A stretch of 64,000 nucleotides of DNA, taken from NCBI RefSeq assembly GCF_002854065.1, contig NZ_CP024147.1, one strand, 5' to 3'. The position numbers and the translations under genes are program-made. This DNA comes from Escherichia coli. Its GTDB lineage: Bacteria; Pseudomonadota; Gammaproteobacteria; Enterobacterales; Enterobacteriaceae. How positions within the stretch are numbered: position 1 is the stretch's first letter; the number at the start of each line of letters is the position of its first letter. The notes beneath the pieces are model-generated. The model was not told the origin of the DNA. It searched no databases and saw only the letters and a program-made list of their open reading frames with translations. Below are positions 40,725 through 41,006 of the stretch, one piece after another.

Positions 40725-40898
40725 CCAGCTATTTACGATATTTATATATCGATACATAATTTTATTTTTTCATAAAACGCAGAAACAGTGATCAGGTGTA
40801 CAACGCCACCCGACGGCTGTAATAACAAAAAATCCCTTGATGCCTGTCCCTTTTGTTACACTCCGTTATCACGCACAAGAGATATGCAGGACACTGGT

Positions 40899-41006
40899 AT
40901 GCCGACTAAACGCTTTGATAAAAAACACTGGAAGATGGTGGTGGTGCTACTGGCAATCTGTGGCGCTATGTTGTTGCTACGTTGGGCAGCAATGATTTGG
41001 GGCTGA
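40899..41006 (+). CDS. yniD: small membrane protein YniD (35 aa, MPTKRFDKKHWKMVVVLLAICGAMLLLRWAAMIWG)
   Basis: C-terminal part of track ORF 40788..41006; single hydrophobic helix. Confidence 0.6.
   Translation: MPTKRFDKKHWKMVVVLLAICGAMLLLRWAAMIWG

Follow-up and report, generated by a model that had tools for sequence, protein, structure and literature searches.

In Escherichia coli, the small membrane protein YniD is in all likelihood made as 35 residues from the ATG at 40899, and the 72-residue open reading frame in which it is embedded is an over-extended call. The window is a stretch of 64,000 nucleotides of E. coli DNA, to which all coordinates refer. Its ORF listing contains a reading frame on the + strand at 40788-41006, with a GTG start and a product of 72 aa, MIRCTTPPDGCNNKKSLDACPFCYTPLSRTRDMQDTGMPTKRFDKKHWKMVVVLLAICGAMLLLRWAAMIWG. 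The first-pass annotation had described this frame accurately: it begins with GTG, and the Cys-rich string quoted from it is present, with four Cys among its 37 residues. It had also offered two readings of the 37 codons upstream of the YniD core, as non-coding DNA or as an alternative isoform. Comparative genomics, the ribosome-binding site and published profiling strongly support the first of these, whereas an isoform or 5' extension is unsupported by every test.

We propose the following arrangement of the locus. YniD would be translated from ATG 40899 behind an AGGA Shine-Dalgarno (SD) sequence, and the 111 nt between GTG 40788 and ATG 40899 would remain untranslated. The 37-codon "extension" (40788-40898, + strand) would be non-coding DNA of two origins. 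From 40788 to about 40840 it would be the edge of an insertion that carries espL1. From about 40843 to 40898 it would be the ancestral promoter and leader, with a -10 element at 40854-40862 followed by a leader of about 30 nt. The 72-aa frame would be a chance fusion of insertion-flank DNA, promoter, leader and the real gene.

The real gene is a known one. The yniD coding sequence occupies 40899-41006 (+), that is, 35 aa plus a stop codon, MPTKRFDKKHWKMVVVLLAICGAMLLLRWAAMIWG, as delimited by the NCBIfam family NF041491, the RefSeq limits, codon periodicity and a peak of ribosome profiling described below. The short form matches NF041491, "small membrane protein YniD", with 85.7 bits against a cut-off of 40. 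The match extends over residues 2-35 and covers the whole profile (positions 1-34 of 34); in the 72-aa form it is limited to residues 39-72. Residues 1-12 make up a basic N-terminus with a net charge of +4, and residues 13-27 a single hydrophobic helix, in which the Kyte-Doolittle 15-residue mean peaks at 3.04 over MVVVLLAICGAMLLL. For comparison, yniD loci were fetched from one genome per species. This gave 80 loci, in 75 of which the core could be delimited, and across these 75, from Escherichia to Pantoea, identity in the core is 80-100%. Conservation is strongest in the C-terminal tail RWAAMIWG. The 53 Enterobacteriaceae loci with a product starting "MP" are referred to below as MP-type loci.

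Genomic position is conserved along with the protein. In nearly all MP-type loci ydiY lies downstream on the opposite strand, and in 43 of the 53 thrS lies upstream. The window has the same neighbors, thrS at 36375-38303 (-) upstream, with espL1 between it and yniD, and ydiY at 41059-41817 (-) downstream and convergent with yniD. The HMM, the length, charge and helix, and the genomic position, which are all the features tested, place the C-terminal 35 aa (WP_001142445.1) in the YniD family, and the identification of this part as a single-helix small membrane protein was correct. By the positive-inside rule, YniD is predicted to be a single-pass inner-membrane protein with its N-terminus inside the cell. 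If other small membrane proteins of enterobacteria are a guide, it most likely modulates a larger membrane protein. YniD has been detected by mass spectrometry by Treitz et al., as cited in a review. The homologues of Rahnella (L062-L067), M[TA]KHWKM..., seem to have a shorter N-terminus, with 29 aa counted from the nearest ATG; further in-frame ATGs lie 1, 6 and 11 codons upstream of it. Downstream of the gene, between the convergent yniD (+) and ydiY (-), the sequence at 41026-41050 folds into a GC-rich hairpin. Read on the - strand it resembles a terminator, and it also forms in the + strand RNA, where it is followed by AGAUAAUUUU (z = -2.4). To judge from its sequence, this hairpin is probably a bidirectional terminator shared by the two genes.

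The signals for translation initiation are found at ATG 40899. The SD sequence AGGA at 40888-40891 (+) lies 7 nt before this codon and pairs with the anti-SD at -4.0 kcal/mol, and an SD-like 4-mer is present at -18 to -4 in 68 of the 75 species. No SD sequence precedes GTG 40788, whose anti-SD pairing is +0.2 kcal/mol; 78% of the start-like triplets in the window pair as well as or better than this GTG. An in-frame ATG at 40884-40886 (+), used in the 2006 annotation of K-12, would give a 40-aa form, MQDTGMPTK..., and its anti-SD pairing is weak (-1.7 kcal/mol). We judge it to be unused.

The start site of yniD in K-12 is established by experiment. Tetracycline-inhibited ribosome profiling (TetRP), which maps initiation sites, placed yniD initiation at a new site, 15 nt downstream of the start annotated in 2006 (Nakahigashi et al. 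2016, PMC4909307, Table S2). The TetRP read depth is 18.8/30.8/27.2 at the ATG of MPTK versus 0/0/0 at the older ATG, and the protein from the mapped start is 35 aa long, in agreement with the re-annotation in U00096.3 (PMC4909307). Start-site profiling had been named in the first-pass annotation as a check on the extension. Within a screen that spans ±60 nt in K-12, where espL1 is a pseudogene, it supports the MPTK start and speaks against the site 15 nt upstream; the GTG at -111 lies outside that span. Two codons beyond the position of the GTG, the K-12 sequence contains an in-frame ATG. This ATG is absent among the intergenic-ATG sites listed in the available part of PMC4909307.

Upstream of the core ATG there is no coding constraint. 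An in-frame ATG, GTG or TTG before the next stop codon is absent in 36 of the 75 species loci, and an extension by at least 30 codons is possible in only five of them. In the 53 MP-type loci, open runs ahead of the core ATG have a mean of 15.0 and a median of 10 codons, compared with a geometric expectation for random sequence of 15.9 and 11.4 codons; they are distributed as random sequence predicts. Many species of Enterobacter, Kluyvera and Citrobacter have a stop codon 1-8 codons before the core ATG. When the loci are anchored on the ATG, column conservation is flat at 0.3-0.5 upstream, except for the SD peak at -10 to -8. From the ATG on, it is about 1.0 at codon positions 1 and 2 and about 0.4-0.6 at position 3, and the 3-nt periodicity of conservation starts exactly at the core ATG. 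Conservation of the extension in other enterobacteria, the other check that had been suggested, was not found. The long forms that gene callers report elsewhere have extensions unrelated to the one in E. coli. Open upstream frames of 47 codons in the loci L007, L010, L054, L058 and L061 were considered as a second conserved extension and rejected. We attribute the resemblance among these frames to conserved DNA in the thrS-yniD intergenic region. Upstream of the -10 block, they bear no similarity to the extension of E. coli.

The same picture is obtained at closer range. None of the six E. coli alleles inspected has a stop in the upstream frame, and their indels all lie 5' of the GTG. Across the 37 extension codons, these alleles carry six nonsynonymous changes and one synonymous change, and the core carries none. 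The long forms deposited in databases vary solely in the extension, at I2T/S, R3G, C4R, G10D, C20Y and P26S. Since C4R and C20Y occur in E. coli, two of the four cysteines are dispensable. In Escherichia sp. MOD1-EC7003 there are 22 open codons without a start, and a 1-nt indel relative to E. coli lies inside the extension. E. whittamii and Escherichia sp. E1V33 have 17 open codons each. E. albertii has 36, with a TTG at -28 as the sole start; the Cys pattern is missing there and in other species. E. coli shows no variation in the 60 nt preceding the core ATG, which is accounted for by constraint on the promoter and leader together with low diversity in the species. A Cys-rich or zinc-ribbon domain was rejected as a reading of the extension: the zf-like Pfam family PF04071 scores 13.7 bits on the Cys stretch against a gathering threshold of 27 (E = 0.062), which is sub-threshold, and the Cys ligands vary among E. 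coli. The length of the frame calls for no special explanation either. With the base composition of the espL1-yniD spacer, the 41 stop-free codons upstream of the core ATG have p ~0.08, which is not beyond chance.

A large part of the extension is DNA that arrived with espL1. The intact espL1 gene (38826-40724, +) encodes a T3SS-effector-like protein of 632 aa. It was found in none of the 53 other Enterobacteriaceae loci, and in 43 of 53 such loci thrS (-) lies 288-792 nt upstream of yniD (+), in divergent orientation. Homology of the window to espL1-less Escherichia is confined to 38305-38354 next to thrS and then resumes only from 40840-40843. This gap indicates that about 2.5 kb with espL1 were inserted in the E. 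coli lineage, at 38355-40840 (+) between thrS and yniD. On its 3' side the insertion ends 11-14 nt before the yniD -10 element, and its edge there provides the 72-aa frame with its GTG and its first ~18 codons. The expression signals of yniD are left intact. In Escherichia sp. MOD1-EC7003 (L009), positions 775-1612 align to 38304-38719 of the window, then to 39514-39553, and then to 40616-41010. This alignment suggests that the locus once had the espL1 insertion and retains remnants of it after a deletion, as opposed to never having received it.

The remainder of the extension contains a conserved -10-like element. The residues "FCYT" of the supposed Cys-rich segment are the translation, in the 72-aa frame, of an invariant block, TTTGTTACAC, which is the single invariant island amid unconserved DNA in the upstream alignment of Escherichia and Citrobacter. 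In this island lies a predicted extended -10 element, TGTTACACT, at 40854-40862 (+), with TG at 40854-40855 and the hexamer TACACT at 40857-40862. Of the 53 MP-type loci, 50 have the pattern TGnTAnAnT at -45 to -37 relative to the ATG. Its background frequency is 3e-4 per nt, from which 0.006 occurrences are expected per 21-nt interval, that is, per locus. Across genera, the element has the versions TGTTACACT, TGGTAGACT, TGGTACACT, TGATACACT, TGATAGACT and TGATAAACT. The TG at -15/-14, T-12, A-11, A-9 and T-7 are fixed, and positions -13 and -10 vary. The hexamer has the form TAnACT; position -8 is a C in 49 of 50 loci. No -35 element is conserved across loci, and no -35 hexamer is recognizable at 17 nt; extended -10 promoters work without a -35.

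Since only positions relevant to a -10 element are fixed across genera, we infer that 40854-40862 is the yniD promoter. Transcription would then start at about 40868-40871, 6-9 nt after the hexamer, with a leader of about 30 nt (predicted 5' UTR, 40868-40898, +). With a start there, GTG 40788 would lie about 80 nt upstream of the 5' end of the mRNA. Sigma-S prefers TATACT, which TAnACT of yniD resembles, and the C at -8 hints at stationary-phase or stress expression of yniD. One report (PMC7858067) describes a 1,200-day stationary-phase culture of K-12 in which an IS2 insertion in the arpB/yniD intergenic region became fixed in one lineage; this insertion may be relevant to yniD expression. 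The extended -10 element, sharply conserved, is a by-product of the analysis and probably marks the yniD promoter throughout the Enterobacteriaceae.

Several other candidate signals were considered around the gene. The peaks of minor sigma factors assigned to "thrS/yniD" by genomic SELEX (PMC5493296) are at 1801256 and 1801758, far from yniD at 1803189 in the same coordinates, and are therefore uninformative on the yniD promoter. The yniD locus is not among the entries available from the transcription-start data of Cappable-seq (PMC4782308), ROSE (PMC10301672) and Romero 2014 (PMC4681348). A promoter-like site at 40732-40760 and a minus-strand hairpin at 40814-40791 were set aside. They show no excess over shuffled sequences (two promoter-like sites versus 1.2 in shuffles) and belong to the non-conserved DNA of the insertion. 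A search of 40650-41120 against Rfam at permissive thresholds gave no match. A different leader is seen in the yniD loci of Pantoea and Erwinia (L068-L084), where homologues of the Pantoea type begin VAKKLAATKHWKM... from a GTG. About 20-50 nt upstream of this GTG, the GC-rich arms of a perfect hairpin, GATGCGCC-N4-GGCGCATC, precede GTTGCTTTCTG. The hairpin lies between a -10-like hexamer, TAGAAT or TAGACT, and the SD sequence, and has the look of a terminator or an attenuator.

The observations that could speak for a longer product have to be weighed against these results. One explanation is that YniD exists in E. coli as two proteoforms, with the 35-aa protein accompanied by a minor one of 72 aa initiated at GTG 40788 on transcripts that read through from espL1 or start at an upstream promoter. 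If so, the 72-aa form would add to YniD a cytoplasmic CX6CX8CX2C segment resembling a metal-binding site. All six alleles do have the frame open, the spacing of the four Cys is like that of a small zinc ribbon, with the zf-like Pfam match at E = 0.062, and the long form is present in GenBank and UniRef. An RNA that includes the GTG could arise by espL1 read-through or from the promoter-like site at 40732-40760. Yet promoter-like sites are not above the count in shuffles, and the Pfam score is half of the gathering threshold. The GTG lacks an SD sequence, nonsynonymous changes outnumber synonymous ones six to one in the extension, and two of its four Cys are missing from some strains. Stops close the frame, or a start is lacking, in the sister species of Escherichia and in almost every other genus, and half of the extension is newly inserted DNA, with the remainder overlapping the conserved promoter element. 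We consider two proteoforms very improbable. The same low credence is given to a 72-aa form specific to the E. coli lineages with intact espL1, made by low-level initiation at the GTG on espL1 read-through transcripts; its CX6CX8CX2C segment would have arisen de novo from insertion-flank and promoter DNA. Translation from ATG 40884, as in the 2006 annotation of K-12, is also hardly credible. This codon is in frame only 15 nt upstream, and the 40-aa form that it would produce is deposited on 934 contigs, but the TetRP signal there is 0/0/0 against 19-31 at the MPTK ATG, the pairing with the anti-SD is weak, and U00096.3 has been re-annotated to 35 aa. The equivalent codon is ACG in Escherichia sp. 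MOD1-EC7003 and is absent in other genera, where stop codons often lie 1-8 codons before the MPTK ATG.

A further alternative concerns the nature of the invariant block and not the start codon. TTTGTTACAC could be a site for a transcription factor, or an RNA element of a longer leader, with the promoter located further upstream. The missing -35 hexamer at 17 nt would fit this explanation, and so would the 10 nt that are invariant in Escherichia and Citrobacter, a run longer than the TGnTAnAnT core. Across genera, however, only TG, T-12, A-11, A-9 and T-7 are kept, which is the signature of an extended -10 element, and Rfam has no match in the region. Moreover, the DNA 5' of the block is unrelated between E. 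coli and the espL1-less Escherichia, so an ancestral promoter further upstream cannot have survived. We regard a role other than that of promoter as unlikely for this block, and the promoter at 40854-40862 as the better reading.

With YniD taken as the 35-aa protein from ATG 40899, the forms held in databases can be put in order. Of 5426 complete genomes, 5416 contain a match to a 361-bp query, and the gene has been given three different start calls. The 35-aa form is deposited on at least 1000 contigs, next to the 40-aa form mentioned above, and the exact 72-aa sequence is on 84 contigs as "transmembrane anchor protein" or "conserved hypothetical protein". In six RefSeq E. coli genomes picked to span the identity range, yniD is annotated in every case as 108 nt, with the identical product WP_001142445.1. 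The RefSeq annotation is correct, and the extension is a legacy or automatic over-call: the upstream frame is stop-free by chance, and ORF finders and older pipelines therefore extended yniD to the first upstream GTG. The public 72-aa "transmembrane anchor protein" and 40-aa "predicted protein" entries are over-extended calls of the 35-aa YniD, and they are unfit for inferring a Cys-rich domain.

The locus can be compared with three known systems. The "transmembrane anchor protein" entries, for example ACB17735.1 of E. coli SMS-3-5 and UniRef A0A979H2A6_ECOSE, are 72 aa long and identical in sequence to the frame in the window. They differ in being automated or legacy calls stretched to the first upstream GTG, whereas RefSeq PGAP gives 35 aa at the same locus. 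YniD of K-12 (b4535; YNID_ECOLI; NF041491; Pfam PF28032, precomputed in the protein database) has an identical 35-aa sequence, WP_001142445.1. Its locus has the same neighbors, with thrS and espL1-arpB upstream and ydiY convergent downstream, followed by pfkB, and the SD sequence and start codon are those of the window, without differences in the coding part. The difference lies upstream of the gene, where espL1 is the frameshifted pseudogene arpB in K-12 but intact in the window, and where the espL1-yniD spacer differs by small indels 5' of the GTG. Finally, the conserved element resembles extended -10 promoters of the sigma-70 type (TGn-TATAAT) in its TG at -15/-14, its one spacer base and its T-12, A-11, A-9 and T-7. 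Like them, it has no conserved -35, and it keeps a fixed distance of ~37-45 nt to the start codon. It departs from their consensus in the hexamer, which is TAnACT.
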